Origin: a virus
Lineage: Duplodnaviria; Caudoviricetes
DNA: 64,000 bases
Reading direction: 5' to 3' (one strand)
IMG/VR virus record: IMGVR_UViG_2788499831_000001
Coordinates: 1 to 64,000 of that record
Made by a program: the position numbers and the translations under genes. Positions 1,967-56,743 of the stretch are shown piece after piece. Positions within the stretch are counted from its first letter, which is position 1; the number at the start of each line of letters is the position of its first letter. The notes under the pieces were generated by a model. It searched no databases, was not told where the DNA came from, and worked only from the letters and a program-made list of their open reading frames with translations.

Positions 1967-2034
1967 CCCCTTTTTATAAAATAAAAAAGCCTGCTATAAG
2001 CACGCTTCGTTTTATTGTAAAATCCGTATTTAAT

Positions 2035-2145
2035 TTATTGCACTAACGCAAATACTGTATCAATTATAATTATCCAAAGAACTGCCGATGCTATACCACC
2101 TAGAACTAAAGCTTTTCCAAACCTATTTTCATTAACCATATTCAT
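2035..2145 (-). CDS. 36-aa membrane peptide MNMVNENRFGKALVLGGIASAVLWIIIIDTVFALVQ (not in ORF track)
   Basis: RBS gcgaggt; single TM segment; the second copy (ATG ~56117) keeps the frame with conservative C-terminal changes. Confidence 0.65.
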   Translation of the reverse strand: MNMVNENRFGKALVLGGIASAVLWIIIIDTVFALVQ

Positions 2146-2301
2146 AATATCTACCTCGCTTAGATAAGTTTCGTATAGATTATATTAGTATTGTTAAATC
2201 TTAATGGTTTCTATGTGAATTTAATGTGTTCAATTTCTTGCAATATAAAAAGAGTAGCGATATCGCTGCTCTTGGTTATACAAACAGTATTTTGTTAAAA
2301 G

Positions 2302-2514
2302 TTATTCGTCATCATACATTGAGCATGATATATCTAATATCTCGAAAATTTCACCAAGTAACTCTAGGTTGTAGTCGTGTTTTATTTTGTCCCAGGCAAC
2401 ACCTTTAAATCCGAATGTATTTTCACAATACCTAAACATCTTCTCGAATTCTCCAAATTCATCTAAGTCGAAATCTGTACTGTATATCTTTACACAATAT
2501 ATGATAATTAACAC
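2302..2514 (-). CDS. hypothetical acidic protein (repeat cassette)
   Basis: GTG start after ggag; 70 aa; duplicated at 56274..56486. Confidence 0.6.
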   Translation of the reverse strand: MLIIIYCVKIYSTDFDLDEFGEFEKMFRYCENTFGFKGVAWDKIKHDYNLELLGEIFEILDISCSMYDDE

Positions 2515-2539
2515 TCTCCATTATATTTTTATTAAAGAT

Positions 2540-2704
2540 TTATTCAGTACTAGGAATTACCCACCATTTACCCTTTAAATATATATAGCCAAGATGTCCT
2601 CCGGGTTTTCGATTCATATCTATGACACGATCGCATTCATGAGGTTCTTTAATAGTTTTTATAAATTCTTTTACATCTGTAATTCCATTTCCGTAATCAT
2701 ACAT
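2540..2704 (-). CDS. 54-aa hypothetical protein MYDYGNGITDVKEF...WWVIPSTE (not in ORF track)
   Basis: aaaggag RBS upstream in both repeat copies; repeat identity begins exactly at its ATG. Confidence 0.6.
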   Translation of the reverse strand: MYDYGNGITDVKEFIKTIKEPHECDRVIDMNRKPGGHLGYIYLKGKWWVIPSTE

Positions 2705-2755
2705 TATGAAATCCATCTCCTTTCAAAATAAAAAAGATTAGCGATATCGCTGCCC

Positions 2756-2938
2756 TTAGTCTAATTCTTTATAAAAATCTTCACGATACTTTTGCACTTT
2801 TTTTATGAGATAATCCATTTCACCATCTATTGTTATACCAGGTGCTCCGCCACCATGTTCATGTATTTCAGATTTTGCAGACGCTTCATATTCATTAAGG
2901 AGATTTTCAAAAATCTGTTTTAACACTTCTTTGTCCAT
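2756..2938 (-). CDS. hypothetical protein
   Basis: 60 aa from ATG after gaggtg RBS. Confidence 0.6.
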   Translation of the reverse strand: MDKEVLKQIFENLLNEYEASAKSEIHEHGGGAPGITIDGEMDYLIKKVQKYREDFYKELD

Positions 2939-2950
2939 CAGATACACCTC

Positions 2951-3127
2951 TTATGAATAAATTTCTTTGTGAACTTTTATTGATAATGGACTATTTATCA
3001 CGACTGCCCAACCATTACAACTCGTTTCTTTGCACTTGCAAGGTAATGTCACGAAACTCTCGTTATATTCTTCTAATGTGATATCAGAACATTTACAGTA
3101 TCCTTCCTCAAATTCTTCTTTTGTCAT
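2951..3127 (-). CDS. small Cys-rich hypothetical protein
   Basis: 58 aa from MTKEEFEEGYCKC; RBS aaagga. Confidence 0.55.
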   Translation of the reverse strand: MTKEEFEEGYCKCSDITLEEYNESFVTLPCKCKETSCNGWAVVINSPLSIKVHKEIYS

Positions 3128-3178
3128 ATTGTCATTCCTTTTTTCAATAATAAAAAGAGTAGCCATAGCCACCCTTTT

Positions 3179-3886
3179 TTATAATCTTCTTCTATCCCAA
3201 GTAACACCTGTTTTAAATACTTTTGCAGGAGACCCTACAATCGAGCAATTCGGCGGAAACTCTTTCGTAACGATTGATCTACTACCAACAATGCTATCAT
3301 CTGATAAATTTGTACCTTTTAAGATTTGCACTTGATGCCCTACCCAAACATGATTACCGATGTTAACATCTTTAGCAGGATTAATACGTTGGTTAGTTTC
3401 TAAGTCAATAATAGAATGCGAGTCACTATTTCGAATATCTATACCGAAAGAGAACATGCAATCTTTACCTATGGTAATTTTCCCATTAGGTTCTACAACT
3501 GAAATGCCAGCTTCCATAATTGTTGTTTCGTCCCCTATTTCAATTGAACAATTATTGTCCTCAAACCAGATTACTCCACGTTTCATGTAACAGTTTTTAC
3601 CGAAGTGAAGTTTATGATTATCTCCATTTATATAAACTTGTACATTTGAAAGGCGTGTGCCTTCTTCTATTATTATAGTGTTTCCATTACCATTTATATT
3701 GAATTGCATTTTAGATAAAAATGCACCTTGGTTAATGAGTTTGTTATCTTTACCTTTTATCTTTTTCTTATTCTTGTTTAGTATGCAATATAATTGCGAT
3801 ATTCTTTTACGAATATTAGGGTTATTACGTTGTTTTTCATCTAAAATAGACTTGATTTTACTTTTCAAGAATTCCCCTCCCCACAA
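3179..3886 (-). CDS. hexapeptide-repeat (LbH) O-acyltransferase, polysaccharide/sugar O-acetyltransferase-like
   Basis: Repeated IGxx hexapeptides; DIRNSDSHSI, IGNHVWVG and IVGSPAK motifs; true start probably TTG ~3865. Confidence 0.85.
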   Translation of the reverse strand: MWGGEFLKSKIKSILDEKQRNNPNIRKRISQLYCILNKNKKKIKGKDNKLINQGAFLSKMQFNINGNGNTIIIEEGTRLSNVQVYINGDNHKLHFGKNCYMKRGVIWFEDNNCSIEIGDETTIMEAGISVVEPNGKITIGKDCMFSFGIDIRNSDSHSIIDLETNQRINPAKDVNIGNHVWVGHQVQILKGTNLSDDSIVGSRSIVTKEFPPNCSIVGSPAKVFKTGVTWDRRRL

Positions 3887-3938
3887 TTATATTTTATCAT
3901 GCATTTGCATATTTAGAATAACGTTTTTTGTCATATTT

Positions 3939-5762
3939 CTACATTTTTATCCAATATGAATCAGTTTTTTGCAAAGTTACATATTGGCTTGGATTCAGAG
4001 AAATATTAGACCCTAAATTCAGCAAGTTATTTCCTACACCACTATTGTTTAGCGTAAGCGTACCGCCACCTCCACAGATAATAGTTACTATCTGTCCAAC
4101 GTTTCCTACTATATCGTTAATGTTTCCTGTTACCCCTTTGAGAATAAACGGGAAGTTTTGATTGAAGGGATTAGAGTTTTTAGTTATTATTGTACTCAAA
4201 TCTAAAGTCCCGCTAATAGTTCTCGGTGTTGCGTTCACATTTCCAAATGTTTTGTTAGTATCAACAAAGTCTAAAGAATAATTCTCTGCAATGCCCCTGT
4301 TTTGGAAAATGGAACCACGATAAGTGTTTTTACTTGTAATAATACTATTTTGTTCCGGAAATGGAACCGCAGGATCTCCTACGAATAATGGATAATGAGA
4401 AATAGTTGATAAATCAACAAATCCATAGTAGAATTTTGAGTCTCCTTGTTTAGTAATAACGTTATCGCTAAGCTTTATATTGACTGTATTGTAACCTGCG
4501 TTAATACCATGTCTAGTTGGATAAGCTATATTGTTCCCTGATACAATTACTGAGGCTTCCTGATAAGTTGCCTTATCCGTAACTTCTAAATAGATACCGC
4601 TACTCGGTTCTCGTTGTCCGCACCAAGCCATGTTATTATTAGAAATGATTAATGATCGCATATCCTCGCAATATATAGATTCTAGTCCTGCTTCGAATAG
4701 GTCATTATTAGAAATAATCGTAAAGTTGCTTTGCTTCACATAAACGTTATACATTTTATCAGCCGGTTTAAGTCTGTAAAACCGATGAAATAAAATGTTG
4801 TTTATAATAATTAATCCGTCTTGACCTTCGAAGTGAAAATGAGTAAGTCCTCTTATATAAAAATATGCCTGGCAACCTTTAACCTGCCAATCTCCATGTT
4901 GACTATAAACCCAAGTTGATGGAACTCCAGAAGTATAAGGAGACCAACTAGTGCGAACTGCCATATCAACATCGTAATACATACAATCACTGATAATAAC
5001 CCGTGCAGTTTGTTGGTAAGGCACATCATTGTGGATAGCTTCTCCGTGAATGGCATACCTATAATTTTGGAAATAGCAATCAGATACATTAACACATCGA
5101 GTATTTCGGATAACGATCGCATCTGTATTGTTACCTACATTATGCACAAAACGCAAACCTTCAACTCTTGTAAATAAATCTTTTATGTTATTGTCATAAC
5201 TTGGATTTGCCCTTTCAACTGAACGGATTAAAACCGTTCCTTTTAGCGTTCCAGAACCAGTCAGTTTAATATGTTTAGAAGAAATTAGAACTGTTGAAAA
5301 TTTGTACTCACCAATTGGAAAAAAGACCGTTCCTCCCTGGTCTCCAAAAGTATCTTTTATATAATTAATCGCAGCTTGGATAGCGTTTGTGTCGTCTGTT
5401 ACACCATCACCTTTTGCTCCGAAATCTAGTACACTAACCCAGTTCTTCTTTAATCTGTCAATCTTCAATTGCTCTGCATCAATACGTTCCTTTGCTGTCC
5501 CATATACTACACTATTTGCATCAACTCGGATTTGTTTTGTTTCTGGGTCAATAGAACCTTCAACAACAATCCCGTTTAATTGCTGTTGAACACTTTTTGA
5601 TAATGTATCAGCCGCATTAGATTTTTCTTCAGCCACTACGGATTTTTCTTCAGCCTTATACGATTTTCTTAATGCTTCATTCGCATTATCAATCCCCATA
5701 TTAATCTTGTAATAACTTTCGCTAATCCTCTCTGTACCTTGTAACTTAGGCGCATCAGCCAT
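3939..5762 (-). CDS. tailspike / receptor-binding protein with pectate-lyase-like parallel beta-helix (phage A)
   Basis: VSVLDFGAKGDGVTDDT motif, beta-helix repeats, directly after Dit. Confidence 0.85.
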   Translation of the reverse strand: MADAPKLQGTERISESYYKINMGIDNANEALRKSYKAEEKSVVAEEKSNAADTLSKSVQQQLNGIVVEGSIDPETKQIRVDANSVVYGTAKERIDAEQLKIDRLKKNWVSVLDFGAKGDGVTDDTNAIQAAINYIKDTFGDQGGTVFFPIGEYKFSTVLISSKHIKLTGSGTLKGTVLIRSVERANPSYDNNIKDLFTRVEGLRFVHNVGNNTDAIVIRNTRCVNVSDCYFQNYRYAIHGEAIHNDVPYQQTARVIISDCMYYDVDMAVRTSWSPYTSGVPSTWVYSQHGDWQVKGCQAYFYIRGLTHFHFEGQDGLIIINNILFHRFYRLKPADKMYNVYVKQSNFTIISNNDLFEAGLESIYCEDMRSLIISNNNMAWCGQREPSSGIYLEVTDKATYQEASVIVSGNNIAYPTRHGINAGYNTVNIKLSDNVITKQGDSKFYYGFVDLSTISHYPLFVGDPAVPFPEQNSIITSKNTYRGSIFQNRGIAENYSLDFVDTNKTFGNVNATPRTISGTLDLSTIITKNSNPFNQNFPFILKGVTGNINDIVGNVGQIVTIICGGGGTLTLNNSGVGNNLLNLGSNISLNPSQYVTLQKTDSYWIKM

Positions 5763-5775: not shown

Positions 5776-6585
5776 TTATATATATTTAGCGCGGTATTTG
5801 AATGCAATGTTTATATTTAGGTTTGAACCGCCTATTTGTATTGCATTAGCGCCTGGCATTAACTCGAATTTTTCTAAGTTTCCTTGCATTTGAAATAAGA
5901 AATTCTGTCCGTTCTTTATTACTGCATATCGCTCTGCATCAATTAAAAACGAAGAATTTGTAAAAGACCCAAAAGAAAAACGCCCACCTTTTAAAGTGAA
6001 CGTTAAATCGTTAGCACTGCCACTGATTTCAATTACAGGGCGTACAACTTTCTGCCCGTAATTTTCTGCAATTAAAGTTTTTGGATCAGTAACTGTATAA
6101 GATGTCTTTTTAAAATTAATAGGAATATCTGACATCCAAGGGACCATATCTTGCCAACGGATTTCCTCTGTACTTTGCAATACAGAATATGCATGAGGGT
6201 CATAAGCTATTAAAGGTAATTCAAATTTACCCATCTTAAAATATCGATCAATTGAAAGTGAACCGCTATATTGAACCTTGTAATATTTATCTGGTTCGTA
6301 ATCATAAATCAGCTTTACTTCCTTCGGTTTACCGTAAGGATCAATAAAAGCAGCCACCGTTTTTCTGATAGCTGCCGCTAATGAAAACCTATCTTCTTGT
6401 GGTTTGATAATTAATGGTAAATTAAACTCTAAAGGGTCTATGTCTGAACCAAAGTAATAAGCACCAGGACGTCCGGGAATAGAAACTGTATAGTCACGAA
6501 TTGGCGGAGCGGCTGGATGTTGGAATCCTGGTAAAAGCGCTAAACCCAATTGTTTTAACGATTTCCCATCTATTGTCAAACTCAT
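5776..6585 (-). CDS. distal tail protein (Dit)
   Basis: Directly after TMP; Sipho_tail-like sequence (RPGAYY, ELMPGANAI). Confidence 0.85.
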   Translation of the reverse strand: MSLTIDGKSLKQLGLALLPGFQHPAAPPIRDYTVSIPGRPGAYYFGSDIDPLEFNLPLIIKPQEDRFSLAAAIRKTVAAFIDPYGKPKEVKLIYDYEPDKYYKVQYSGSLSIDRYFKMGKFELPLIAYDPHAYSVLQSTEEIRWQDMVPWMSDIPINFKKTSYTVTDPKTLIAENYGQKVVRPVIEISGSANDLTFTLKGGRFSFGSFTNSSFLIDAERYAVIKNGQNFLFQMQGNLEKFELMPGANAIQIGGSNLNINIAFKYRAKYI

Positions 6586-8021
6586 AACTGCCCCACCTTT
6601 CTTCCTGATGTCTTAATATGTTTGCCTAACTCTACTGCTAATTTTTGAACATCGGCTTCTTCTCTAATTACAAATGTTGAACCCCTAAACATATCAGCAA
6701 AGTTATATGAATCCGATTTATTTGCATTTGAAGAGGAATTGCCATCCACACTACTTTGACTAGCATTTCTACTCATTGCTTGTGAGCTATTAGCCATACT
6801 GCCATATACATTACTCATGACACTTTTTAAGCCGGATAACTCTTTCATAGAATTAGCCATCGAATAACTTATATCGCCAATTAATCGGCTCATAGTACCA
6901 GTAATACCAAGTGATTTTTCGTTTGAGGATAATGGCGTTACAGAAACACGATTACCTCTCTTAGTAAATAACTCCGGTCCAGCTTCACCAGCAATAAATG
7001 AACCATCCCCGAGAACATGTCCACCTGTCGCTAACATTGGGATTGTAGGGATATGAGTTTTCCCACCACCGACAAACGGGACCCAATCTGGCATATCTAT
7101 GCTGTTAATACCCTCAATCAATGCATTAATCATTGAAATTACAGCGTTTATAGGCGCTTTCGCTGCTAATTCTATTCCGTTGAATACTCCATCAAATATT
7201 TTCACAATTCCTTTCCAAGCTTTGTCCCAATCTCCTGAGAAAGCACCAGAAATGAAATCGATAATTCCGTTTAAAATTGGCTTTAAGACTGTATCCCACA
7301 CAACTTTGATTCCATCAAATGCATCTGATACAACACTACCAATAGCACTAAATACAAATTTAAAAGCTGGTAACAGGACATTTTCTATGAATGATGAAAT
7401 TTTTGAAAAAACAGGTGAGAGTATTTCTTCCCAAACACGTTTGATAATATCAAATGCATCTTTAACAATATCCTTTATCAATGTAAATCCTTTATCAAAT
7501 ACCGGTTGTAAAGTTCCAACGATTATAGATACTATTTGATCTATTGTCGGTTTGAAATATTCATTGTATATGGCCATAATTTTATCGCCGAACAATACCC
7601 ATATAGCAATTAAACCTGCAATTGCTGCAACTACTAAAGCAATCGGACTTGTCAATACAGCCATAACTCCAGCAAACGTTATAGCACCTGATGTGGCTAA
7701 GAAGATTACTGGGGCAAGAGCTGCACAAATTCCAACAAGTATACCGATTGCAACCGTTATAGCTGTAATTGCCGCCGCTAACACTGGATGAGCTGAAATA
7801 AAACCAGCAAATGCAGAAACAACATCAGCTACTGTAAGTAACACCGGCTCAAGAGCTTCTTTTAACTCTTTCATCGCATCTTTCCATTTGACCATTGGTG
7901 ATGCATCCAATTTATTTGCGGATTGTTGTAAATCATCTATGCCTTGTTTTAAGTCAGCTTGTTTTTGTTCGGTTTGTAAAATTGTATTTATGATTTTTTG
8001 ACCTTGGTCTTCCCACATTGT
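6582..8021 (-). CDS. tail tape measure protein, exon 2
   Basis: TMWEDQG continues ELFG of exon 1; TMP W/F repeats. Confidence 0.9.
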   Translation of the reverse strand, partial: TMWEDQGQKIINTILQTEQKQADLKQGIDDLQQSANKLDASPMVKWKDAMKELKEALEPVLLTVADVVSAFAGFISAHPVLAAAITAITVAIGILVGICAALAPVIFLATSGAITFAGVMAVLTSPIALVVAAIAGLIAIWVLFGDKIMAIYNEYFKPTIDQIVSIIVGTLQPVFDKGFTLIKDIVKDAFDIIKRVWEEILSPVFSKISSFIENVLLPAFKFVFSAIGSVVSDAFDGIKVVWDTVLKPILNGIIDFISGAFSGDWDKAWKGIVKIFDGVFNGIELAAKAPINAVISMINALIEGINSIDMPDWVPFVGGGKTHIPTIPMLATGGHVLGDGSFIAGEAGPELFTKRGNRVSVTPLSSNEKSLGITGTMSRLIGDISYSMANSMKELSGLKSVMSNVYGSMANSSQAMSRNASQSSVDGNSSSNANKSDSYNFADMFRGSTFVIREEADVQKLAVELGKHIKTSGRKVGQL

Positions 8022-8250
8022 CATTTTTGTTATCGTAAAGGCTTTTTATCCTCTACTTCTTACACTTCATATTAGTGTAAGATCGGCATACGTTTTCACT
8101 AATATAGTGTCGCGGTCTCGTGGAGGGATTATATCTTTTCACCCTCTATGCTCTGCCCCTGACTATACTTCGTATAGCCTTCGGTTCAAGTCAGGAATCT
8201 CACCCTTCTTGCTTCATACCGCGATTTTAATTCGGCACAATTTATCATCT
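8022..8250 (-). ncRNA. group I self-splicing intron (IA-like, 229 nt, no ORF) in the TMP gene
   Basis: P1 UUCGGU/GCCGAA with U-G at the 5' splice site; P10 AUUGU/ACAAU; P3 UCGCGGU/ACCGCGA; P7 GAGCAUA/UAUGCC; P8 and P9 hairpins; terminal G; removal restores the frame. Confidence 0.92.
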
Positions 8251-10746
8251 ACCGAAAAGTTCTACACCAATTGCTTCTTTCAAATCAGCATCCTGGATTT
8301 GATCTAACCATTTAACCATATCCACAAATGCTTGTTTACCTTCTTCGCCACCTTTAGCTATAGCTTTCCCCCAACCTTCTAGTTGAGAGAATATTTCTTG
8401 TACAGCTGCACTATCAGGTGGATTTTTCGCAAGCTCCAGTTTCTGTGCATTCATTTCTTTAAAAGATTCTAACTCGGCTCTATGTGATTCGCGAACTGCG
8501 TCCATTTCATCACTCAAACGCTCACTTAAGGCTTGTTTGCGATTATTGTGACTTTCTTTTAAAGATGATAAATTCGCTTGATTTACTTCTCTTAATGAAT
8601 CAAGTTGCGCTTTATTTGATTCACTAATTGCTTTTAAATTTTCTTGTTTATTTTGTTGGAAAGCTTCTTTTTGTTCTTGTTGTCGTTCTTTCAGAGCTTC
8701 CTTTTCGTTGTTTATTTGTTCTTTAACTTGCTCTTTTCGGCTATCAATCTCTGACTTCAACGCTTCTTTCTTTGCATCAGATGCTTCTTTGATACCGTCT
8801 TTTTCTTCTTTTAATCTGTCAATCTGACTTTTACGTTCTTCACGTATTTTATCAAGCTGCATTTTCTCTTCGAGATCTCGCAATGCTTTTATTGCTGCCT
8901 GACGTTCTTCTTCATTTTTTGCCTTACTTATTTTTATCTTTAAATCAGCGCGTTTCTCAGCATTTTCGCGTTCTTTAATATATTTATCCTCGGCTGCTGT
9001 CTTGGAATCTAGATAACCAATTTGATCGTCAATCGCTTTAAGACGATTGTATTTTTCCTCATCGATTAATTTCATACGTTCCATATATTCTTTATCGATG
9101 AGCTTTATTTTCTGCTCAGATGACTTTTCAAAAGCCCTAACTTCTGCTTCAAGGGACTTTTCAAGAGCTTTTTGTTGTCTATCATAATTTTTCGATGTTG
9201 CATCGTATTCAGCGCTTAGTTTTTTCTCTAAATTCTTTTGTTGATTATCGTAACTTTTAGAAACTGCATTGTATTCAGCATCAAGACTTTTGGCTAATGC
9301 ATTCTGTCTTTGACTATGGCTTTTAGAAAGTGCTTTTTCTTGATTACTAAATGAGTTAGCAAGTGCAGATTCTTGTTTCGCAAATCCTTTTTGCATCGAT
9401 GATATCTGTTCATCAGACATTTTTTCAGTATCATCCACAACATCACGAATAGCATCTTTCATAGAGGTTTTTAATCCTCGGCTCATTTCAACAGATCTAA
9501 CGCGTCCTTCTTTTAGACCATCCAATAAATTATCGATATTCCAAGATTTTTCCTTTGCTGCACTTGCCATAATACTTTGTACTTCTTGTGCCGTATAACC
9601 AACTCGTCTTAACTGCGCGCCATATTCAGCAATGATATCGAGTTGTTCTGGCGGAAATCCTATTTTTAAAAGGGAATTAACTAGCCCTAATGCTTCTTCA
9701 TTAGAAATGTTTAATTCGCTACCAATTTCATTGGTCTCTTGTATTAATTCTGTAAAATCAATCTGCGAATAAGAACTAGCGATTGTTGCTGCGCCTTGTA
9801 CTATTGCCATATTGGTAGCATCAGAGGCATCTTTATTTAATGACCATTGTCTTCGTACACCTTCCAATGCTTCCTCTGCATCGCCGCCATAGGCTGTAAC
9901 AGTTCTGACTGCATCCTCCACAGATCTCTTTGATGATTCCGGAACGTCAAAGGTTATATCAATTTTTGTTTTTAACTCTGACATATCCAAAGCCTGTCCG
10001 ATGACTTCTTGAAGTCCTACACCTGCAGCTATTCCACCTATTACGTTTTCTAACTCAACACCTAATCCCTTGACACTTTCGCCTGCTTGTTCTGCTTCTT
10101 GGGAGAGCTGGTTTAAATCACTCCTGATGTTTTGAATGGAATTACCATCATCAACAGAACGAAGAGCCTGTTGCAGCCTGCCAACATCAACTTCGGCTCC
10201 CAGCGCTTCTCTTCCGACTATCTCAATGGCCTGTTCTAGTTGTCTGCTTGATGCAGTACCGTTTTTAATTGCATTCACAAGACGATTCCCTAATGCATCC
10301 GCAAAATCATCAACACTTTTTCCTGTGGCGCTAAATAAAGTCTCTAATTGTCTCGTTGAACTTGCTGCTTTTTCTTGTTCAGCCTTTAATCCTGCAAGAC
10401 TGTTCTTGAATGTATTAAGTTGCCCTTCTGTAAATTCAATTTCACGCCTAAACGCCCGATATTGTTCTTCATTAATTGTGCCACTTTCAAATTGCGCTTG
10501 AACTTGTTGTTGAGCAGACTTTAAACTATCTAATTTTTTCGTTGTATTCTCAATTTGTTGAGTAAGCAATTGTTGCTTTTGGGCTAAAGCTTCTACATTG
10601 CCCGGGTTGAATTTTAATAGTCGTTCGACATCTTTTAACTCTTTAGATAGTTCACTACTTTGTTTGTTTACATCTTTCAATGCGTTTTGAAGACCGGTTG
10701 TTTCTCCGCCGATTTCTATCGTTATTCCTTTAATTCTTCCTGCCAT
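8251..10746 (-). CDS. tail tape measure protein, exon 1 (spliced product ~1311 aa)
   Basis: MAGRIKGITIEIGGET TMP N-terminus; long coiled coil. Confidence 0.92.
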
Positions 10747-11354: not shown

Positions 11355-11927
11355 TTACGCCCCCACTACTTTCTCATATACTTTTGTATACCATGCATCG
11401 TAAATACCTGCTGGTGTCGTTGTCTTTGTAGAAGTTTTAACTTTAAGTGTTTCCGGATGCTGCGATGCAACGAATTTCAATTCAGTTGTATTAGGCTCCG
11501 TTTTATCACTCTTTGTAGAAGAACCAAAACCAGGACGAGAAACTGATACATTATAAAGTACATGTCGTGTCGATTTTACGTCTCCATCAAATTCAAACAT
11601 AAGGGCTATTCTTTTAATCTTTGCATTTGAAACTTCTGTAAGAACTTGATCCTCTTCATCCAAAATCTCACCTAGCACTTCAGTTCGGAATGCTTCAGTA
11701 ACATTAGCAATATTTAATGTTCCTTCGTATCCTTGGTTGCTTGATTCAGTGTAGTAGTTACTATCATCAGCCCAGAAGTCTGATTGTTCACCTTTTGGGT
11801 CTAACTTCATTTCAACTGCACCAGGCAATTTACCCGGTGTTCCGTATGTGATCTTTCCTGTTGCATCTTCAGTAATTACGCTATAATGTACTTTCTTTAG
11901 ACCAAAACTCACTTTATTTTCTGCCAT
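11355..11927 (-). CDS. major tail protein (phi13 family)
   Basis: KVSFGLKKVHY and ALMFEFDGD motifs. Confidence 0.9.
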   Translation of the reverse strand: MAENKVSFGLKKVHYSVITEDATGKITYGTPGKLPGAVEMKLDPKGEQSDFWADDSNYYTESSNQGYEGTLNIANVTEAFRTEVLGEILDEEDQVLTEVSNAKIKRIALMFEFDGDVKSTRHVLYNVSVSRPGFGSSTKSDKTEPNTTELKFVASQHPETLKVKTSTKTTTPAGIYDAWYTKVYEKVVGA

Positions 11928-12260
11928 TTATATCAACCTCGTTTCGTATATTTTTTGATACATTTTTTCAGATTCAATAACCCCTTCAATTGGCGAATCA
12001 TAAGGGATTTCGAATTCATCTAGAATCTGTTCAAGCTTTGCTTCCGCAACTAAATCTTTTTTAGTTGTGTAAAGCTCTATATTTAAATCGCTTATCTTGT
12101 GGTATACCTTGTTGTCAGCCATTAAATTAGCTGAACCGTCCGCAAGAAAGCAAATATATGGCAGCTTCGGAACTGGTTTGCCTGGTAACGCTGTGAAATG
12201 CGAATAAGCCACAGGTAAACCTGTAGCATCAAGGATTTTCTTAATTTCAATTAAGTTCAT
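11928..12260 (-). CDS. tail completion/terminator protein
   Basis: Position in the head-tail module. Confidence 0.7.
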   Translation of the reverse strand: MNLIEIKKILDATGLPVAYSHFTALPGKPVPKLPYICFLADGSANLMADNKVYHKISDLNIELYTTKKDLVAEAKLEQILDEFEIPYDSPIEGVIESEKMYQKIYETRLI

Positions 12261-12625
12261 TGTTGAATCGCCCTTTCAACCCGCTCTGAAAATTCGTTTA
12301 CTGCTTTTTCTTCAGCTGGAGCAATATGGACTATAGCTGGCACACGGCCGCCATTCACTTTGGCGTGTCCCTTCTCTAATAGGTGTGTAAGCTGAGGCTT
12401 TAATGCATTATGAACAACAAATGCATTACCTTCCTTTTTCTTGCGCCACCCCTTTGCATATTTACGTCCACCTTGGCTTTCGCTTTTAGGACTCTTTTGC
12501 TTTAATTCATCTACAAGGTCGTTAGCAACTGCTTCTTTTTCAACCTCTAACTTTTCTTCTACTTCTTTCCCATATCTTTGTAGTTCTCTAGCAATATCAT
12601 TTGCTAGACTATCGATACTAGACAC
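12257..12625 (-). CDS. HK97 gp10-family neck protein
   Basis: THLLEKGHAKVNGGRV motif. Confidence 0.85.
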   Translation of the reverse strand: MSSIDSLANDIARELQRYGKEVEEKLEVEKEAVANDLVDELKQKSPKSESQGGRKYAKGWRKKKEGNAFVVHNALKPQLTHLLEKGHAKVNGGRVPAIVHIAPAEEKAVNEFSERVERAIQQ

Positions 12626-46008: not shown

Positions 46009-46911
46009 ATGACTAACGATATTTTTAAACACGCTCGGAAACGAGGACATAGTGTAGTAGAGAACGCTTTACTAGATGATTGTAAACTCACAGGGATGGC
46101 TAAATACCTTTTAATTCAGTTCTGTTCGCATAGGGATGGAGTTTGGAAGGTTAATATGCCCGATATTATTAAACGTTCTAAAAACGGACGTGACGCGCAC
46201 TATAACGCACTTACAGAACTAATACATAATAAGTACGCGGCACGTGTAAAAGTATTGGAAAAGGGTAAGTTCATAAAGCAAATCTACATCTACGGACAAG
46301 TAAAAGAAGATGTTGCCGAAATGTTAGAAGAAACAATCCAAGAACAAATTTCGGAAGGATATCTAGTTCGCGTAGAGTTCGGGAAGCCGATTCCTGAAAA
46401 TCCGGAAATGGTTTCCGAAGGTTCGGAGAGCTCCGAAAACCCACTTCCTGAAAATCCGAATGTGGAAATCCCGAATCCGGAAAGTCAGTACATTATAAAT
46501 AACCAAAGAAAAAATACCAAAAAAGAAAATACCAATATATATATAAATAATATAGCAAAAATTGATGATGATAAGCGAAGCTTCTCTTCTCCTTCCCTTA
46601 CAGAAGAAGAATTAAATTTAATAATCAATTCTCTCCGGGAAGCTACAAAAGACGAATTAACAGATCGAAGCTTTAAATCTGTTTTACGAAAAGTAATGGA
46701 TAAATACAATCAAGGTAAGATTACTAACTTTAGAGATTACTTAATCTCAGCTTTAGCGAATAAGATTGAAGACTTGGAGCTTCGAAGAATAAAAGAAAAT
46801 GCTAAAAAGCAATTACACGAAGATAAAATTGATCGTGGTTTAATAGCGCAATCTTTATCAGAACATCAATATACAGGTAAAGTGCCTTTCTATGATTGGT
46901 TGGCGTCATAA
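46009..46911 (+). CDS. plasmid-prophage replication initiator
   Basis: N-terminal HTH-type replication domain, internal ttcctgaaaatccg repeats (46391, 46445), next to the partition genes. Confidence 0.75.
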   Translation: MTNDIFKHARKRGHSVVENALLDDCKLTGMAKYLLIQFCSHRDGVWKVNMPDIIKRSKNGRDAHYNALTELIHNKYAARVKVLEKGKFIKQIYIYGQVKEDVAEMLEETIQEQISEGYLVRVEFGKPIPENPEMVSEGSESSENPLPENPNVEIPNPESQYIINNQRKNTKKENTNIYINNIAKIDDDKRSFSSPSLTEEELNLIINSLREATKDELTDRSFKSVLRKVMDKYNQGKITNFRDYLISALANKIEDLELRRIKENAKKQLHEDKIDRGLIAQSLSEHQYTGKVPFYDWLAS

Positions 46912-47094: not shown

Positions 47095-47200
47095 CAACAT
47101 TCAATGATTAACCAATGATAAATTTATCATTTTTGGTATATTTCATTGAATTAAAACGTAAGTATCTGTTAGAATCAAAAATATCAATGATTAACCATTG
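47095..47200. promoter_or_regulatory. candidate parC centromere/operator
   Basis: tcaatgattaacca at 47101 and 47184; palindrome aatgataaatttatcatt at 47114. Confidence 0.55.
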
Positions 47201-47221
47201 GTTTTTGAAAGGGGAATATAT

Positions 47222-48253
47222 ATGTTATTAGGAAATCCGTATGCGATTGACTTAGGAAATGGCTTTACAAAGCGTGCTTCAAAGAAAAATAAATCACTAG
47301 AGGCAGATGTTATTACAGAATTATCGGTGTTAGCACCAGTTGATGATTACTACAACGAAGCTAGTTTCACAAAAATCGAACTAACAAACACTGACTTCCC
47401 TTACTACATAGGAGAAGAAGCTAGAAAATCAAAGCTTCCATTAATTCGTGCACTTGGCGAGAACAAAGCGAAACGTTATGAAGATCCAACGTTTAAGAAA
47501 CAATTATTCGGATTCATTGCAAAAGACTTCAAAAAGAACGTTACTATTCCATTGCTTGTTACAGGCCTTCCGGTATCACACTTCGGTAATCAACGTGAAT
47601 CGATTCAAAAAGTAGCTATGGAAGAAACAGCTGTTAAAGTGAATGGCGAACTAATCACAATTAAGGTAAAACAATGCCTAGTTATTCCGCAACCAGTAGG
47701 GACACAATATTACCTAGTTAAAAAAGAAATCATTAATAAAGAAGATCGTATTCTTATTATCGATGGTGGATTTGGTACATTTGATGTTACTGATATGTCT
47801 GGTAACGCTGTTATCGACCGTTTAGGAACTGAATTAGGCTGTGAGAAAGCATTCATGACTATTGAACAAATCGTTCGCGATAACATTGGTGAAACACCTG
47901 ATTTAAGCGTATCTAACATGCACTATATCCTTGAGAATGGCTATAAGTACAATGGCTCTCTATACGACTTATACACTCATAAAGATGTAGCTGAGAAGGT
48001 TGATGAAGAATTACAACGTCATTTCGATGCAGCACTACGTGAAGTGTCTCAAAAGTTCAACTTAGCTGTATACGATAAAATCGTGTGGACTGGTGGAATG
48101 GCTGCGCTTCATAAAAAACGTATCGAAAAGAAAAAAGAGCAATTCCCAACATTTGCGGTTCTAGAAAATGGTCAAGAAGCTAACCTATTAGGATACTACT
48201 ATTTAGGATGTGACGTATTTGACAAACTTACAAAAGAAAAAGCTTCAAATTGA
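47222..48253 (+). CDS. parM: ParM/StbA-family actin-like segregation ATPase
   Basis: AIDLGNGFTK, TGLP, PQPVG, IIDGGFGT and TGG actin-fold motifs. Confidence 0.92.
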   Translation: MLLGNPYAIDLGNGFTKRASKKNKSLEADVITELSVLAPVDDYYNEASFTKIELTNTDFPYYIGEEARKSKLPLIRALGENKAKRYEDPTFKKQLFGFIAKDFKKNVTIPLLVTGLPVSHFGNQRESIQKVAMEETAVKVNGELITIKVKQCLVIPQPVGTQYYLVKKEIINKEDRILIIDGGFGTFDVTDMSGNAVIDRLGTELGCEKAFMTIEQIVRDNIGETPDLSVSNMHYILENGYKYNGSLYDLYTHKDVAEKVDEELQRHFDAALREVSQKFNLAVYDKIVWTGGMAALHKKRIEKKKEQFPTFAVLENGQEANLLGYYYLGCDVFDKLTKEKASN

Positions 48254-48551
48254 GTTGAATCCTAAAAAGGATGAAAGACTGTATAACATGATTGTTAAAC
48301 TAGAAGAAGAAGGCGAAGGAGAGAAAGGATACGTTAATGATCAAGTGAAAAAACGTTTAGAAATGTATCAAGTTCTTTCTGAAGTAGCTGGAGAAGATGA
48401 CCCAATTGAAATAGTAAAGAAATTGTTAATCAACGTTAGAACTAACGGTGTGCAAATTGAGGAAACAGCAGTCGATGAACCTACCGATGAAGTTGCTAAT
48501 AATGCTATGGATTTAATTGATGGTCTTAACAATTGGAATAACATGAATTAA
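48210..48551 (+). CDS. ParR-like DNA-binding adaptor
   Basis: Overlaps the parM stop; size and acidic C-terminus fit. Confidence 0.7.
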   Translation: MTYLTNLQKKKLQIELNPKKDERLYNMIVKLEEEGEGEKGYVNDQVKKRLEMYQVLSEVAGEDDPIEIVKKLLINVRTNGVQIEETAVDEPTDEVANNAMDLIDGLNNWNNMN

Positions 48552-50889: not shown

Positions 50890-51690
50890 TTATTTCACTT
50901 CATACCACCAACCTTTACGGTCAAGCCAACCTTTCATGCCGTTTAATTGCGAATCCGATGTTGGATCAGTAACGAAATATGTTAATCCATTAGATTGTAA
51001 TTTGAAGTCCGCTGTCATCTTCAAAGAATTTAAAGCGCCCATTACATCAGGAGTTTCGTATGGTGAAAAAGCACCTGTTTGGATGATGTTTTGTTTAGGT
51101 TCTTCCGCTTGTACTTGCTCCTGTGCTGCTCCAGTAAACCATGCTAAAGACTTATTTCCTATAAGTGAATTAAGATCACATTTACCGATACCAGGTACAT
51201 TTCCTGTTTCAGTGTATTGCCAAATATCGCAAGGATATGCTGGTTTATTACCACCATAACGCGGAATCCAAACGAAATCACATTTCACATTTGCCATACC
51301 AAAAGGTGCGTACATATGATGACCGACATATAAACCGACTTTCTTAGCTCCTAATCGGTATAACTCATCGATAAACGCCTGTGTACCTGCTCTCATATCA
51401 TTCATTGTTTTTACTTCTACATCAGCCACCCATACAGTTGCGCTCTTATCACCACGGCTCCAGAAGTCTTGCGCTTCTTTCTTCGCATCATTAATCGATA
51501 CAAATCTACAGAACGCATAATTGCCAAAAGGAATATTACGAATCTTCATAGCGGCTACATAAGATTTGTATACTGGATCGACGTAGTTAGAACCATCTTG
51601 TACACGAGCAATTACGAAATCTAAATGTTTTGCTGCCGTATCCCAATCAGGACTTCCATTCCATTTAGACATATCAACAATATATCCCAT
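50890..51690 (-). CDS. endolysin, GH25 muramidase (PlyB-like)
   Basis: [14 protein letters not shown] and IWQYTETG motifs. Confidence 0.92.
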
Positions 51691-51902
51691 TACTTATCCG
51701 CTCCTTCATTTCGTTTATCAGCAAACCATTTGCCAGCTGTAGGATTAGATACAACACCTGCAGCAATCAAAATGTATAGAATCATATCTACGTATTTTTG
51801 ATATCTTCCTAAGTTAAAGTGAGGAACGGTATCCATTAATACCATCCCTACCAACGCGAATAATGCTACCCATAATCCATAATTCTTGAATTTCTCTTGC
51901 AT
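51690..51902 (-). CDS. small holin-like protein
   Basis: Two TM segments, GVVSNPT motif. Confidence 0.75.
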
Positions 51903-51904
51903 CG

Positions 51905-52393
51905 TTATTTCCTCCGTTTCCTTGTATCAGAACGTTTTATTTTTGCTTCAATTTCACTCGCTACACTTTCTAATAACCATGTTGGAATCCATTTGTCCCA
52001 ACCAACACGAACGCAATTAGCTGTGAAACTGTTGAAAATGTGATATGTTAAACCGCCAGTTACCATAAAGAAAAAGAAATCAGGTAATTTAAAAGCAATA
52101 TCAAACATGTGAGCTAAACATGGCAATAAAAAAAGCACCACGGTACGCGCGATGCCTTCAACTCCATATGCCGATGAATACGATCCATCTAACTTTGACG
52201 CTTTGCTTCCGGTAATCCAATCGAGTGCAACAACCATCATCAGAATGAATATCCAGATTAGATTAGTTTTTCCATAAACCAAACTTAAGAACGTCCCTAC
52301 TCCACCGCTTACGAATGAAGCTGCTTTAAATTGTGCTGTATTAAAAATATCGATTATATTAAGACTTCTGAAAATGTCATGAACTCGCTCCAA
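51905..52393 (-). CDS. phage holin family protein
   Basis: ALDWITG motif; multiple TM segments. Confidence 0.8.
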   Translation of the reverse strand: MERVHDIFRSLNIIDIFNTAQFKAASFVSGGVGTFLSLVYGKTNLIWIFILMMVVALDWITGSKASKLDGSYSSAYGVEGIARTVVLFLLPCLAHMFDIAFKLPDFFFFMVTGGLTYHIFNSFTANCVRVGWDKWIPTWLLESVASEIEAKIKRSDTRKRRK

Positions 52394-52438: not shown

Positions 52439-53395
52439 TTACTTAAAACAACTAACATCCATACCGAATATATCTGCAATATCACTCTCGCTACGATCAG
52501 ATAAATAAGATTCTGTCGTTGACACATCGCTATGATTAGCAAGGGACTTTAATTTTTCGAGTGGTATACCTTGCTCACGAAGATTATCAAGCCTTGAATG
52601 ACGGAAAGCATGGGGATTAATTGAAATTGTTTTACCTTCCTTATTACTCAACATGCTGGATAAAATCTCACACCAGTAATTAAAAGCGCTCTTATTAACT
52701 ACTCTCTTTTGACCATTGCCATATGTCTTTACAAATAGCTGATTAATATTATCTTCTCCTCTATCTTCAAGGTACTTCGAAATTAATAATCTGGTACGTT
52801 CGTTGTAATACAACCTAAATTTCTTGCTTCTTTTTCCAATAACAGTATTTGTATAATACCGTTCAGCCAGTCCATCTTTTAATACCTGGTGCACTTCATT
52901 CTTTCTTGCTGCACTGTAATAAGAAATACCAAGATATACAGCGATAAGTATCTGGTCCTTTTTATCCAGTTCATCTAGTAACCATTCAATCTGTTCCTCT
53001 TTTAAAAATGTGATTTCTCTAATTGGATTTTTCGGTAAACCTTTTACCCTAGAACCAATATTAAATTCATAATCATAATCGTCGTCATCTGCACAAAACT
53101 CAAGTGTGGACCGTAATGCACTCATTAATCCATTTACACGAGCATTAGACATGTCCATTTCTTGAAATACAATACAAAGATTACGAATATCTTTTCTTGT
53201 TAGTTCTGTGAATCTTTTGTTATCAAAATGCTGATAAATCAAATACATTATGATTCTTAGGTCCCACCGATATTGCTTTAAAGTACTCTTTGCTTTTCCT
53301 TGTGCCTTCTTTTCAATCAGGAAGTCCCTAACTAGGTTCTTATTATCTGAACTAACGTGTTTATCGTAAATTATAGGATCTACAATTCGTTTCAA
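52439..53395 (-). CDS. tyrosine recombinase (XerC/D-like)
   Basis: SAARKNE, HAFRHS, ANHS and TESY catalytic motifs; TTG start after aggaggtg. Confidence 0.92.
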   Translation of the reverse strand: MKRIVDPIIYDKHVSSDNKNLVRDFLIEKKAQGKAKSTLKQYRWDLRIIMYLIYQHFDNKRFTELTRKDIRNLCIVFQEMDMSNARVNGLMSALRSTLEFCADDDDYDYEFNIGSRVKGLPKNPIREITFLKEEQIEWLLDELDKKDQILIAVYLGISYYSAARKNEVHQVLKDGLAERYYTNTVIGKRSKKFRLYYNERTRLLISKYLEDRGEDNINQLFVKTYGNGQKRVVNKSAFNYWCEILSSMLSNKEGKTISINPHAFRHSRLDNLREQGIPLEKLKSLANHSDVSTTESYLSDRSESDIADIFGMDVSCFK

Positions 53396-53432
53396 TATAA
53401 TCAGCACCTCCTGATAAAATAAAAAGAACAGA

Positions 53433-53921
53433 TTATTTCTGTTCTGTAGGTTCCGTTTCTTCACCAGTTCCTTCTGATGGTTCAGTTGTTGGCGGTTCAA
53501 CTGGGTTTGTCGGTTGCTCAGGTTCTGTTACAGGCGGTTGTTCTGGCTCTTTTGATTCTTCTTTCACAGGAACAACTTGTTTCACGTCGATTCGAGAGAA
53601 GATGTAGTCACCAATTACGACTGTAATTGTATTATTATTGTTTAATTGTTCATTTAAGTAGATTGGATCATAATCATTTGTTACAATCACCATAGGTTTT
53701 CCACTATTTGTGTGGACTTCTAATTTTGTAGTACCTTCTGTTACAGGTAAATTAACCGGAAGAATACGTTTCACATCAATTCGTTGAATAATAAAATCAC
53801 CGATAAGCACGGTGATTAGGTCATTACTATTTAATTGGTCGTTTAGCACCTGTGCATTGTAAGTTTCAGTTTGTACCTTATGTTTCAGTCCGCTTTGTGT
53901 ATGGATTTCAATTGTTTGCAT
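53433..53921 (-). CDS. hypothetical protein with a duplicated ~55-aa domain and Pro/Glu tail
   Basis: Two HT.SG...IG D....IDVK repeats. Confidence 0.75.
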   Translation of the reverse strand: MQTIEIHTQSGLKHKVQTETYNAQVLNDQLNSNDLITVLIGDFIIQRIDVKRILPVNLPVTEGTTKLEVHTNSGKPMVIVTNDYDPIYLNEQLNNNNTITVVIGDYIFSRIDVKQVVPVKEESKEPEQPPVTEPEQPTNPVEPPTTEPSEGTGEETEPTEQK

Positions 53922-53959
53922 ATGTTATCAATCTCCTTCTCTATTTTTAATTATTCATC

Positions 53960-55927
53960 TCAATACGTGCCACCGCTCCTCGACTGGATAAACAAGCGTC
54001 CTGTAACAGTAGCGTTTATTCTAGCTAAACTATTCGGCGTGATTTTAATCTCAACATAGCGGCCACGTTGAAGTTTTCCCTCATTGTCCTTCGCTAAATA
54101 TGGAATCAAATTAATATCTTGTCCTCTTATTGAGTCAAACGGTAATGTATTCCCATCCACTTCAATCGTTACTTTTGATGGAGTTTGATATAATTCGAAA
54201 ATGCCGAACTCAATTTCATGCGTGTGGTCTGGCAATGTAATATCGTGTTTATGGTTAGGAATGCTGATGTCGTGCGTATGGTTTGGAATACTGATGTTAT
54301 GGCTATGATTTGGGATACTTATACTATGATTATGGTCTGGTAATGAAATATCATGTGTATGATCTCCACTAGAACCGTGTGTATAGAAACTAGATCCCGT
54401 TCCTTTTGCGTAAAATGAAGCCGCAGTATTTCTTCCAGGATCAGAAAAAGCTGTATACAATCCTATTGTTGTTGGTTCAGCAGGCATAATCCCACCACCA
54501 TGAAACATCTTATGAACATGATCTCCGCCACCACTTGATGTTTTAACCGTACCGCCACCAGAACCGGTTGAACTAACGTTTGCTCCTCCTGAACTTGTAG
54601 AACCTACATTAGCACCACCAGCTTGCGTTGAACCAACCGTTGCTCCACCGGATGAAGTAGAACCTACAACAGCCCCGCCGCCTTTGATAGCACGCTCGTA
54701 TGCCCTAAATCTTAATATCTCAAATGTCAGTAACAGTTCATTCACATTCTTAACATCGTTAGGTATTTGAAACCTAATGATAGCTGGATGTTCAGGGTCA
54801 CAATTATCTTGGAAGTCTCGACTATCGATATTTGTTGTCCCTTGAGAATACACTTCGTTGACTCTCTGGCGTTTTTCGATATCGGCTTGTATTGTTCCTA
54901 AATCAGTTACCTTATTTTCTAATACAAGCTTTACATCAAGCGGATTACCTGTAACATCACCTTTAGGACGGTCCATTACTCGTAAATCAACCGATATATT
55001 AAAATCCTCATCATATAAGCGCACTAGCTTACCAGTCTCATACTTTTCTATTTTGTATGGATCAATTAACTCATAATCAATCGCATCTATTTCATACGTA
55101 ACTTTTGGCATACACGCTTTTAGTAACATTGCTTGTGCGGAAGCATAAAGGGTTTTCGGGTCCTCGAATTTTCTATCTACCCAAATGTAATCAAACCCAT
55201 CGTGTAAATCTCTAACAAACTCAGGAGCATCTATATAGGGAAGACCATTGTTAACGCTTTTTATCGTAAGCTGATTAACACCTTCGCCATAACCAAGTGG
55301 ATAAATCCTTGTCATAACATCTTTAGCTTTTACTTTGCGCTTAATACCCTTCATATTCTTCCGGTATCGAAGTTCGCCCGTAATTTCTTCTGAGTATCGG
55401 ACAATGTTTAAAGTCCAAGGATAAGACGAATCATCCCAAGTCCATTGGAATTTTTCATCAAATGGCTTCGGAATGCTATATATTGGGCCTAATAACGTAT
55501 CTTCATTTTCCCAACTGTATGAAAAATACTTTGTAAAATCACATTGACCAAGTTTCCAATGCTTTATTCTTTGTTTGCTAAGGAGATACTCAATGTTCTG
55601 TCTTGTGGTTAAATTAATTCTTTCGTGATAACCAAAAAGCACGCTGTCCATCAGTGTGGATAAAACGTGCTCACAGTCATAAGTTATTATTTTTTCATGT
55701 ACTTCTCTCTCTTCTTCACTGTCCATAATACGGAACATTCCAATACGCTTACCGTTATCAAATATCTCAACATAATCAAACGTTTCAATTTCTTCTCTTT
55801 TCGGATCAGTAAACGGCAATGAAAAACCCGCCGTCCAAAGTTCATTGAGTGGCGGGTTGTATTTTATATTATATGCATTCTCAAGATATGCCTTGAGTTG
55901 CATTTGCTTATTATAGAGTTTTAGCAA
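53960..55927 (-). CDS. tail-associated (Tal/endopeptidase-type) minor tail protein of phage A
   Basis: TRIYPLGYGEG motif; C-terminal GG-x-V-G-S-T and PxHxH repeats. Confidence 0.85.
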   Translation of the reverse strand: MLKLYNKQMQLKAYLENAYNIKYNPPLNELWTAGFSLPFTDPKREEIETFDYVEIFDNGKRIGMFRIMDSEEEREVHEKIITYDCEHVLSTLMDSVLFGYHERINLTTRQNIEYLLSKQRIKHWKLGQCDFTKYFSYSWENEDTLLGPIYSIPKPFDEKFQWTWDDSSYPWTLNIVRYSEEITGELRYRKNMKGIKRKVKAKDVMTRIYPLGYGEGVNQLTIKSVNNGLPYIDAPEFVRDLHDGFDYIWVDRKFEDPKTLYASAQAMLLKACMPKVTYEIDAIDYELIDPYKIEKYETGKLVRLYDEDFNISVDLRVMDRPKGDVTGNPLDVKLVLENKVTDLGTIQADIEKRQRVNEVYSQGTTNIDSRDFQDNCDPEHPAIIRFQIPNDVKNVNELLLTFEILRFRAYERAIKGGGAVVGSTSSGGATVGSTQAGGANVGSTSSGGANVSSTGSGGGTVKTSSGGGDHVHKMFHGGGIMPAEPTTIGLYTAFSDPGRNTAASFYAKGTGSSFYTHGSSGDHTHDISLPDHNHSISIPNHSHNISIPNHTHDISIPNHKHDITLPDHTHEIEFGIFELYQTPSKVTIEVDGNTLPFDSIRGQDINLIPYLAKDNEGKLQRGRYVEIKITPNSLARINATVTGRLFIQSRSGGTY

Positions 55928-56031
55928 TGTATCACCTTCTTTGCAAAATAAAAAAGCCTGCTATAAGCACGCTTCATTTTGTTGTAAAATTCGTATTTTA
56001 TTTAATTTATTGTATTACCGCAAATACTGCG

Positions 56032-56676
56032 TCAATTATAATTATCCAAAGAACTGCCGATGCTATACCACCTAGAACTAAAGCTTTTCCAAACCTATTT
56101 TCATTAACCATATTCATAATATCTACCTCGCTTAGATAAGTTTCGTATAGATTATATTAGTATTGTTAAATCTTAATGGTTTCTATGTGAATTTAATGTG
56201 TTCAATTTCTTGCAATATAAAAAGAGTAGCGATATCGCTGCTCTTGGTTATACAAACAGTATTTTGTTAAAAGTTATTCGTCATCATACATTGAGCATGA
56301 TATATCTAATATCTCGAAAATTTCACCAAGTAACTCTAGGTTGTAGTCGTGTTTTATTTTGTCCCAGGCAACACCTTTAAATCCGAATGTATTTTCACAA
56401 TACCTAAACATCTTCTCGAATTCTCCAAATTCATCTAAGTCGAAATCTGTACTGTATATCTTTACACAATATATGATAATTAACACTCTCCATTATATTT
56501 TTATTAAAGATTTATTCAGTACTAGGAATTACCCACCATTTACCCTTTAAATATATATAGCCAAGATGTCCTCCGGGTTTTCGATTCATATCTATGACAC
56601 GATCGCATTCATGAGGTTCTTTAATAGTTTTTATAAATTCTTTTACATCTGTAATTCCATTTCCGTAATCATACAT
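56032..56676. repeat. 645-bp direct repeat, right copy (flanks ~55945 and ~56710)
   Basis: Matches 2060..2704. Confidence 0.97.
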
Positions 56677-56743
56677 GATGAAATCCAGCTCCTTTGCAAA
56701 ATAAAAAAGCCTGTTGCTACACGCTTGAATTTCGAATTTACAT

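Follow-up and report, generated by a model that had tools for sequence, protein, structure and literature searches.

A Bacillus cereus-group phage-plasmid drawn inside a resident prophage at a shared 645-bp cassette: crossover or assembly path?

Does a phage-plasmid of the Bacillus cereus group reside in the chromosome, nested in the tail operon of another prophage, or was it placed there by an assembler? This question is raised by the IMG/VR record IMGVR_UViG_2788499831_000001 (89,130 bp, without Ns). Its first 64 kb were analysed here; this stretch of 64,000 nucleotides is termed the window and its numbering is used unless stated otherwise. Gene families were called from Pfam, NCBIfam and PHROGs searches. 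By exact protein matches the record was traced to contig SMDF01000001.1 (564,948 bp) of the draft whole-genome shotgun assembly GCA_004346705.1, relative to which it is reversed. SMDF01 is 'B. thuringiensis' LP-1-YM from the USA, and a sister strain is LP-2-YM (PMC11843730). IMG/VR lists the record as a provirus with a CheckV completeness of 100. In fact, it consists of two phage genomes, about 54 kb of an element here called A and about 35 kb of an element B, the left end of which is cut off at the record start. A is bracketed by two copies of a direct repeat, R, and B genes are located beyond both copies. The topology of the contig, B-R-A-R-B, is exactly the product of one reciprocal crossover within R.

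The copies of R are at 2060-2704 and 56032-56676. Comparison of the window with itself demonstrated that the 645 bp are identical base for base at an offset of 53,972 bp; the original prediction had called them apparently identical. The same repeat was returned by a repeat finder and when the whole record was searched at the DNA level. An exact match of this length is beyond chance and the repeat is real. When the record was BLASTed against itself, R emerged as the core of one 779-bp homology block with 97.4% identity (1965-2736 versus 55931-56709). In this search no second repeat was detected in the 89-kb record, and outside of the block the similarity between A and B was limited to the two spike genes (65% over 658 nt). 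The edges of R are imperfect, about 95 nt at left with 85-89% identity and a 5-nt indel (1965-2059 versus 55931-56031), and about 32 nt at right. The left flank of copy 1, read on the minus strand, contains a hairpin, a T-run and a ribosome-binding site before the BhlA holin gene of B, and the left flank of copy 2 precedes the gene for the 655-aa Tal of A. The right flank of copy 1 (2705-2736) is of the A type, again with a hairpin, a T-run and a ribosome-binding site; that of copy 2 (56677-56709) is of the B type. It had been argued that the diverged flanks sort as a single crossover predicts. This adds nothing beyond the assignment of the genes to A and B itself. An assembler which uses a collapsed repeat edge twice generates identical copies by construction, and a few true differences could have been erased in this way. 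Counter to this caution, three metagenome contigs are 100% identical to R over 418-429 nt.

Which gene orders are parental? Element A comprises 2705-56031 plus one copy of R, i.e. 53,972 bp as a circle. Its Dit gene (5776-6585, minus strand; Pfam Sipho_tail; 89% DNA identity to Dit of pHS18-5 and NZ_CP130287) and its gene for Tal, a tail-tip protein (53960-55927, minus strand; Pfam Prophage_tail), are about 48 kb apart as drawn. Only after circularising at R does the gap shrink to 3.7 kb. In the circular plasmids pHS18-5 and pBT1850055 the tape-measure protein (TMP) gene is followed by Dit, one variable gene for about 650-700 aa, Tal (annotated as 'phage tail spike protein'), small genes, a holin and a GH25 endolysin. 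The Tal homologue is located 2-3.7 kb from Dit in these two plasmids, in a prophage of Bacillus sp. N5-665 and in phage Athena. The GH25 gene is collinear with the ParM/Rep region in relatives of A. Synteny with pHS18-5, pBT1850055, N5-665 and Athena thus bears out the proposal that circularised A restores the order TMP-Dit-spike-morons-R-Tal-recombinase-holin-GH25. The A-like tail and lysis module of N5-665 is chromosomal; it was considered as evidence on phage-plasmid integration and set aside because N5-665 shares only those modules with A.

In B the right arm starts with a tape-measure gene (61331-64000, minus strand), which continues beyond the window end and has a full product of 1093 aa. 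It is followed on the same strand by Dit (237 aa) and Tal (508 aa) at 59091-61330 (Pfam Prophage_tail on the 508-aa product; TIGR01665; 79% DNA identity to Wrath), by a 626-aa beta-helical tail spike with 65% DNA identity to the spike of A (57218-59098), and at 56744-57216 by a 111-aa gene in the XkdW position and a 44-aa gene resembling XkdX/SPP1 gp23.1 (weak Pfam match to SPP1_GP23-1; position as in Wrath). The left arm consists of a BhlA-family holin (1694-1966, minus strand; Pfam Holin_BhlA), an N-acetylmuramoyl-L-alanine amidase with an SH3 domain as endolysin (651-1697, minus strand; Pfam Amidase_2 and SH3_3; 76-83% DNA identity to Wrath, BMBtp15, BMBtp1 and BMBtp16), and a gene for 110 aa (1-333, plus strand), homologues of which come after the amidase gene in Wrath and the BMBtp phages. 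Matches to the right arm (TMP to Tal) and to the left arm (holin, amidase, 110-aa gene) were found in one set of phages, Wrath, BMBtp15, BMBtp1 and BMBtp16, whose own arms are only 2.5-4.5 kb apart. There, the genes for holin, amidase, the 110-aa protein, an 85-aa protein and a LexA-like protein come directly after Tal, spike and XkdW. Accordingly, the prediction that excision of A restores B in the order TMP-Dit-Tal-spike-XkdW-XkdX-R-BhlA-amidase agrees with the synteny of Wrath and the BMBtp phages. Because the relatives of each element hold contiguously what the record separates, A-R-A and B-R-B are, as judged by gene order, the parental forms. Might the two simply be complete prophages in tandem, each with its own R and without nesting? 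The common minus-strand orientation of all virion-module genes of A and B would agree with this. However, the Wrath/BMBtp synteny places B genes on both sides of A, and in relatives of A the genes for the 655-aa Tal, holin and GH25 adjoin Dit at one end and the ParM/Rep region at the other. Synteny led us to reject a tandem, which we consider the least credible of all explanations.

B extends over about 37 kb, from 56677 to the record end, across 1-2059, and for about 2.5 kb to the left of the window. Toward the right end of the record it carries genes for capsid, portal, TerL, a D5-type primase-helicase, Gam and an S24 repressor, and at record position 85879-87240 a large serine recombinase of 453 aa with Resolvase, Recombinase and Zn_ribbon_recom domains; beyond it is a host NlpC/P60-PcsB gene. 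Outside the window, at left, come a LexA-like gene and a gene for 278 aa, and then the host genes for ComFA-like and ComFC-like proteins, csp, hpf, secA and prfB. Bordered by host genes at either end and equipped with a large serine integrase at one of them, B qualifies, by its gene content, as a normally integrated prophage.

Is A a phage of a different kind? The segment between the repeats had been described as a complete 53,972-bp phage-plasmid, and together with one copy of R it does hold a full gene set; the virion, packaging and lysis genes are complete, but only when A is circularised at R. The presence of replication and partition genes was confirmed as well: a plasmid replication initiator Rep (45985-46911, plus strand; phrog_4707; annotated as 'replication protein' in IEBH, 250, LY4 and PfNC7401) is followed by an actin-like ParM with a candidate ParR-like adaptor of 113 aa downstream (47198-48551, plus strand; Pfam ALP_N; NCBIfam ParM below cutoff; phrog_5401). 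Thus, the maintenance genes expected of an IEBH/250-like plasmid prophage, Rep, a ParM-like ATPase and a small adaptor, are all present. Over these genes the DNA identity to the corresponding stretch of IEBH, 250, LY4 and many plasmids is 84-91%. The replication and partition half of A has 82-91% DNA identity to IEBH, 250, PfNC7401, LY4 and 0105phi7-2, and is matched by 338 Bacillus plasmids in PLSDB; the head and tail half matches phage Athena (82% DNA identity). The circular plasmid prophages of B. cereus sensu lato, namely IEBH, 250, PfNC7401, vB_BceS_LY4, vB_BtS_B83, pBT1850055 and pHS18-5 (PMC8026635), share with A the ParM with adaptor, Rep, an Xer-like recombinase and AimR. They are further alike in their siphovirus virion module, a size of 42-56 kb, and the order TMP, Dit, variable gene, Tal, holin, GH25. 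They differ in the interval between Dit and Tal, which in A contains a spike, an acetyltransferase, small open reading frames (ORFs) and R, and in the relatives a single GDSL esterase or hypothetical gene. On every sequence criterion tested A ranks as a member of this group.

The relatives of A are, unlike A as drawn inside a chromosomal contig, found on plasmid-sized contigs. Close relatives of Rep occurred at six loci in species-representative genomes, all six on plasmid-sized contigs, and the same applied to all eight loci (seven records) in IMG/VR; the contigs in both collections ranged from 15 to 91 kb. In one IMG/VR record Rep is split across the record ends, as expected for a circle. 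Therefore, base rates point to an episomal A. The original prediction had also stated that A has no evident integrase-att module. This holds in spirit. A tyrosine recombinase is nevertheless encoded at 52439-53500 (minus strand; Pfam Phage_integrase; weak similarity to XerA/C/D); being Xer-like and typical of the episomal relatives, it does not argue for such a module. Its homologues, with 71% identity, are found on many B. thuringiensis plasmids of 45-47 kb. ParM together with an Xer-like recombinase is typical of circular plasmid prophages in the B. cereus group, and the recombinase is thought to resolve multimers (PMC8026635). From its similarities the enzyme of A is probably a multimer resolvase, too.

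The recombinase gene lies 2.5 kb from copy 2 of R, and one could imagine that the enzyme acted at a site inside R, in which case the repeats would be attL and attR. Yet instead of a short core an exact stretch of 645 bp is duplicated, within a block of 779 bp over which the homology fades. A search of R and its flanks for inverted repeats of the dif or lox type (11-nt arms, 5-9 nt spacer, at most two mismatches) found none. Considering in addition that the recombinase is Xer-like with homologues on episomal plasmids, site-specific integration is very unlikely.

How, then, did A and B come to be joined? The sequence carries the signature of a Campbell cointegrate: direct repeats of a shared sequence flank A, and recombination at R restores two complete, collinear parents. 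The only evidence for the phasing across R, however, is the contig itself. Independent k-mer contigs from run SRR8466202 break at the borders of R. One starts at window position 2007, where the homology sets in, and another ends at 2675, 30 nt inside R. Since these contigs stop at the R borders, that graph carries no information across R. A repeat in a de Bruijn graph causes contigs to stop at its borders. Here R would be one graph edge and A a loop on R; a path that passes through the loop a single time is permitted and often output by assemblers, and it reads B-R-A-R-B whether or not such a molecule exists. We therefore favor, with about even confidence and drawing on the general behavior of assemblers, that the join between A and B is a short-read assembler path through the R-A-R loop.

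If the join is indeed such a path, one lineage would carry two unrelated temperate siphoviruses. A would be a phage-plasmid of the IEBH/250/pBT1850055 kind, a circle of 53,972 bp which is mainly episomal, as its relatives suggest. B would be an intact Wrath/BMBtp-like prophage of about 37 kb, integrated by its large serine recombinase next to comFA. Both tail operons would have the 645-bp moron cassette R at their distal end. Either way R should be a usable recombination substrate, at which host RecA or the RecT/YqaJ pair of A could fuse and resolve both genomes. An exchange at R would swap Tal, resolvase, holin and GH25 of A against BhlA and amidase of B.

Several points weigh against an assembly path. 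Many assemblers break at an unspannable repeat instead of walking the loop, and the unbroken 565-kb contig through both copies of R may mean that read pairs spanned R. Long inserts or long reads behind the assembly would make the join real. Finally, two contigs of 0.2-1 Mb show the same arrangement; these may or may not be independent assemblies.

These considerations lead to the main competitor, a real and clonal cointegrate. A would have crossed over once with the resident B inside R, mediated by RecA or RecT/YqaJ, and would now be chromosomal and nested in B. As a consequence the late operon of B would run into Tal, resolvase, holin and GH25 of A, and the tail operon of A into BhlA and amidase of B; a second crossover in R would set both parents free again. 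The single-crossover topology, the direct repeats and the restoration of both parental orders at R are what such an event leaves behind. With 645 bp of perfect homology and an annealase-exonuclease pair encoded by A the means would be at hand, the contig is continuous across both junctions, and the arrangement recurs in two large contigs. Phage-encoded recombinases of the single-strand-annealing type are an established cause of exchange between phages and prophages (PMC3945230). Precedents for a dual state exist: the plasmidial prophage pLUSID3 of B. thuringiensis was found free and integrated in one culture by nanopore reads, although this is a site-specific case (PMC7466992), and integrated relatives of P1-like phage-plasmids have been reported (PMC10879196). 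On the other hand, among the Rep relatives in species-representative genomes and IMG/VR no relative of the A replicon was on a chromosomal contig. Intramolecular excision between direct repeats is generally easier than integration, so that at equilibrium the free state is expected to prevail. A chromosome with an active plasmid origin and a ParM centromere may bear a cost. Above all, a draft short-read graph yields the same contig for either state. We consider a real cointegrate possible, but only tentatively so, and a misassembly somewhat more likely.

A mixture of both states is conceivable as well. A might be free in most cells with a minority of cointegrates, or the reverse, with fusion and resolution at R ongoing and the assembler reporting one state. 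The evidence for this is the same as for an artefact or a clonal cointegrate, and pLUSID3 was seen in both states in one culture (PMC7466992). At RecA-level rates, however, the minority form is normally far below 1%, and we regard a mixed population as improbable.

If the join were a molecule, the event would be of a known kind. Campbell-type cointegrates arise in Hfr formation by F via shared insertion sequence (IS) elements and in the integration of P1 via shared sequence. As in those cases, a circular element lies between direct repeats, a crossover restores the parents, and no dedicated integrase is needed. In contrast, the shared sequence here is a 645-bp phage moron cassette and not an IS element, the target is the tail operon of another prophage with an exchange of tail-tip and lysis ends, and the cointegrate is known from the contig only. 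pLUSID3 of strain HER1410 (PMC7466992) is likewise a B. thuringiensis phage with a free circle and an integrated form, and it is Wrath-like as is B. Yet it integrates as a whole into flgK, presumably by its own recombinases, and resembles B rather than A; neither a second phage nor a shared repeat is involved. The 'relaxed homologous recombination' behind phage mosaicism (PMC3945230) resembles the present case by the RecT/YqaJ pair of A and a short homologous block shared with a co-resident prophage. It differs in that double exchanges led to mosaic phages, in E. coli and with Rad52-like recombinases, whereas the topology here is that of a single crossover and is deduced from sequence. Campbell-type homologous cointegration is thus the closest known mechanism, and a nested phage-plasmid would be a new instance of it.

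Either answer has consequences. A real join would capture module exchange between phages at an intermediate stage, in which a plasmid-type and an integrating phage swap receptor-binding and lysis ends via a 645-bp cassette, and a route by which a phage-plasmid becomes chromosomal without an integrase. It is doubtful, though worth spelling out, that the cointegrate is real and also stably inherited. An integrase-less phage-plasmid would then have been captured at a shared moron cassette with its tail-tip and lysis ends exchanged, an alternative resolution would yield chimeric phages, and an induced A which replicates and packages headful without excision might take along neighboring host DNA in the manner of lateral transduction. 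An artefact, in turn, would be a warning that one repeat in common with the chromosome can be enough for a circular replicon to end up in a chromosomal contig, and that such a join can be catalogued as one 89-kb 'provirus' rated 100% complete. In both cases two unrelated phages of one host, and three metagenome contigs as well, have an identical copy of a rare cassette.

What is R? Copy 1 contains three small ORFs on the minus strand, for 54/58 aa, 70 aa, and a hydrophobic peptide of 36 aa, and copy 2 is its exact repeat. None of these ORFs had a Pfam match or an informative family; the 70-aa ORF matches phrog_4117 (function unknown). The 70-aa ORF had no relatives in the viral and species-genome contig collections and was present in one metagenome contig of 1 kb only. 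A search of 5.8 billion proteins returned the protein of the window as the sole match, and exact look-ups of the 36-aa junction ORFs returned the source contig only. Three short metagenome contigs from different samples, compared with window 2276-3870, carry R directly after an A-type acetyltransferase gene, which is 92-93.5% identical to that of A, and have the A-type right flank. They end inside R and are devoid of the two small ORFs at 2756-3172. Conservation in these contigs is higher for R than for the neighboring genes. From this distribution R appears to be a rare, highly conserved cassette which travels with the A-type spike/acetyltransferase region; this fits a recent cassette-wise spread at the linkers described below. 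Because R is also identical in metagenome contigs, the identity of its copies in this genome alone is no proof of recombination in this cell.

The linkers consist of a hairpin, a TTTTTTATTTT-like run and a ribosome-binding site and are located at 1960-2001, 3129-3170, 20723-20764, 22836-22877 and 55927-55968. The same type is present at 2705-2740 and 56677-56712. Linkers bound R on both sides and also other small-gene cassettes in A. The homology between A and B decays exactly inside these linkers, and judging from this they may be crossover points of cassette exchange.

Next to R in A are two small moron ORFs for 63 and 73 aa without a family match (2756-3172, minus strand). They are preceded in the operon by a moron resembling a hexapeptide-repeat O-acetyltransferase (3179-3886, minus strand; weak Pfam Hexapep; NCBIfam WbbJ and maltose O-acetyltransferase-like below cutoffs) and by the tail spike of 607 aa, a pectate-lyase-like beta-helix (3939-5762, minus strand; Pfam Pect-lyase_RHGA_epim). 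That the spike is followed directly by the acetyltransferase-like gene (3179-5762) suggests lysogenic conversion of the surface polysaccharide which the spike recognises. Beyond Dit and the tape-measure gene the head and tail morphogenesis genes at 11355-18543 (minus strand) encode tail tube, connectors, an HK97-type capsid, an S78 prohead protease, portal, TerL and a candidate TerS (Pfam; 82% DNA identity to phage Athena).

The early region of A contains a 58-nt repeat with 86% identity, the copies of which are 5.9 kb apart (25654-25711 and 31574-31631), and a homing-endonuclease-like gene of the HNH-NUMOD type (30634-31191, minus strand). Family searches identified a DnaD/DnaB_2-type replisome organiser and a DnaC/IstB-like loader (33461-35063, minus strand). 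The RecT annealase and the YqaJ exonuclease are encoded at 35474-37257 (minus strand; Pfam RecT 6e-60, YqaJ 1e-42). The arbitrium receptor AimR is at 41801-42985 (minus strand; Pfam AimR 4e-60); other regulators in A are AntA and helix-turn-helix proteins. Between a TM2-domain gene and Rep an inverted repeat was noted at 44617-44649, the 13-bp arms of which have one mismatch and are separated by 7 nt. It might serve as an operator or as the site of resolution by the Xer-like recombinase. On the far side of the ParM region a holin (Phage_holin_4_1) and the GH25 endolysin with a PlyG cell-wall-binding domain are encoded at 50890-52393 (minus strand), collinear with the ParM region in LY4 and pBT1850055.

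The tape-measure gene of A is interrupted. At 6582-10746 (minus strand) it is represented by two ORFs for 833 and 480 aa, which are split by a structured insertion of 229 nt at 8022-8250. The insertion is absent from Athena and N5-665, and when it is removed the two ORFs join in frame. It folds far better than shuffled controls (z = -5.1). At the 5' junction the upstream exon, whose last base is U, and the beginning of the insertion form a P1-like helix of 6 bp in which this U pairs with G; the insertion ends in G. Rfam returned nothing at gathering score in the window, and for the insertion only a chance-level match to a small RNA. At least 11 Bacillus plasmids have the insertion in their TMP genes, and weaker matches were obtained in plasmids of Clostridioides and Limosilactobacillus. 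By its junctions and fold it is probably an ORF-less group I intron. A split and possibly non-functional TMP has been noted for pBWB404, with similar split TMPs in other plasmids (PMC8026635). The pBWB404 record NC_010183.1 does carry the insertion; the other split-TMP plasmids of that study were not matched to our insertion hits. If the insertion is an intron, the split TMP of pBWB404 need not mean a degenerate plasmid and may be intact after splicing.

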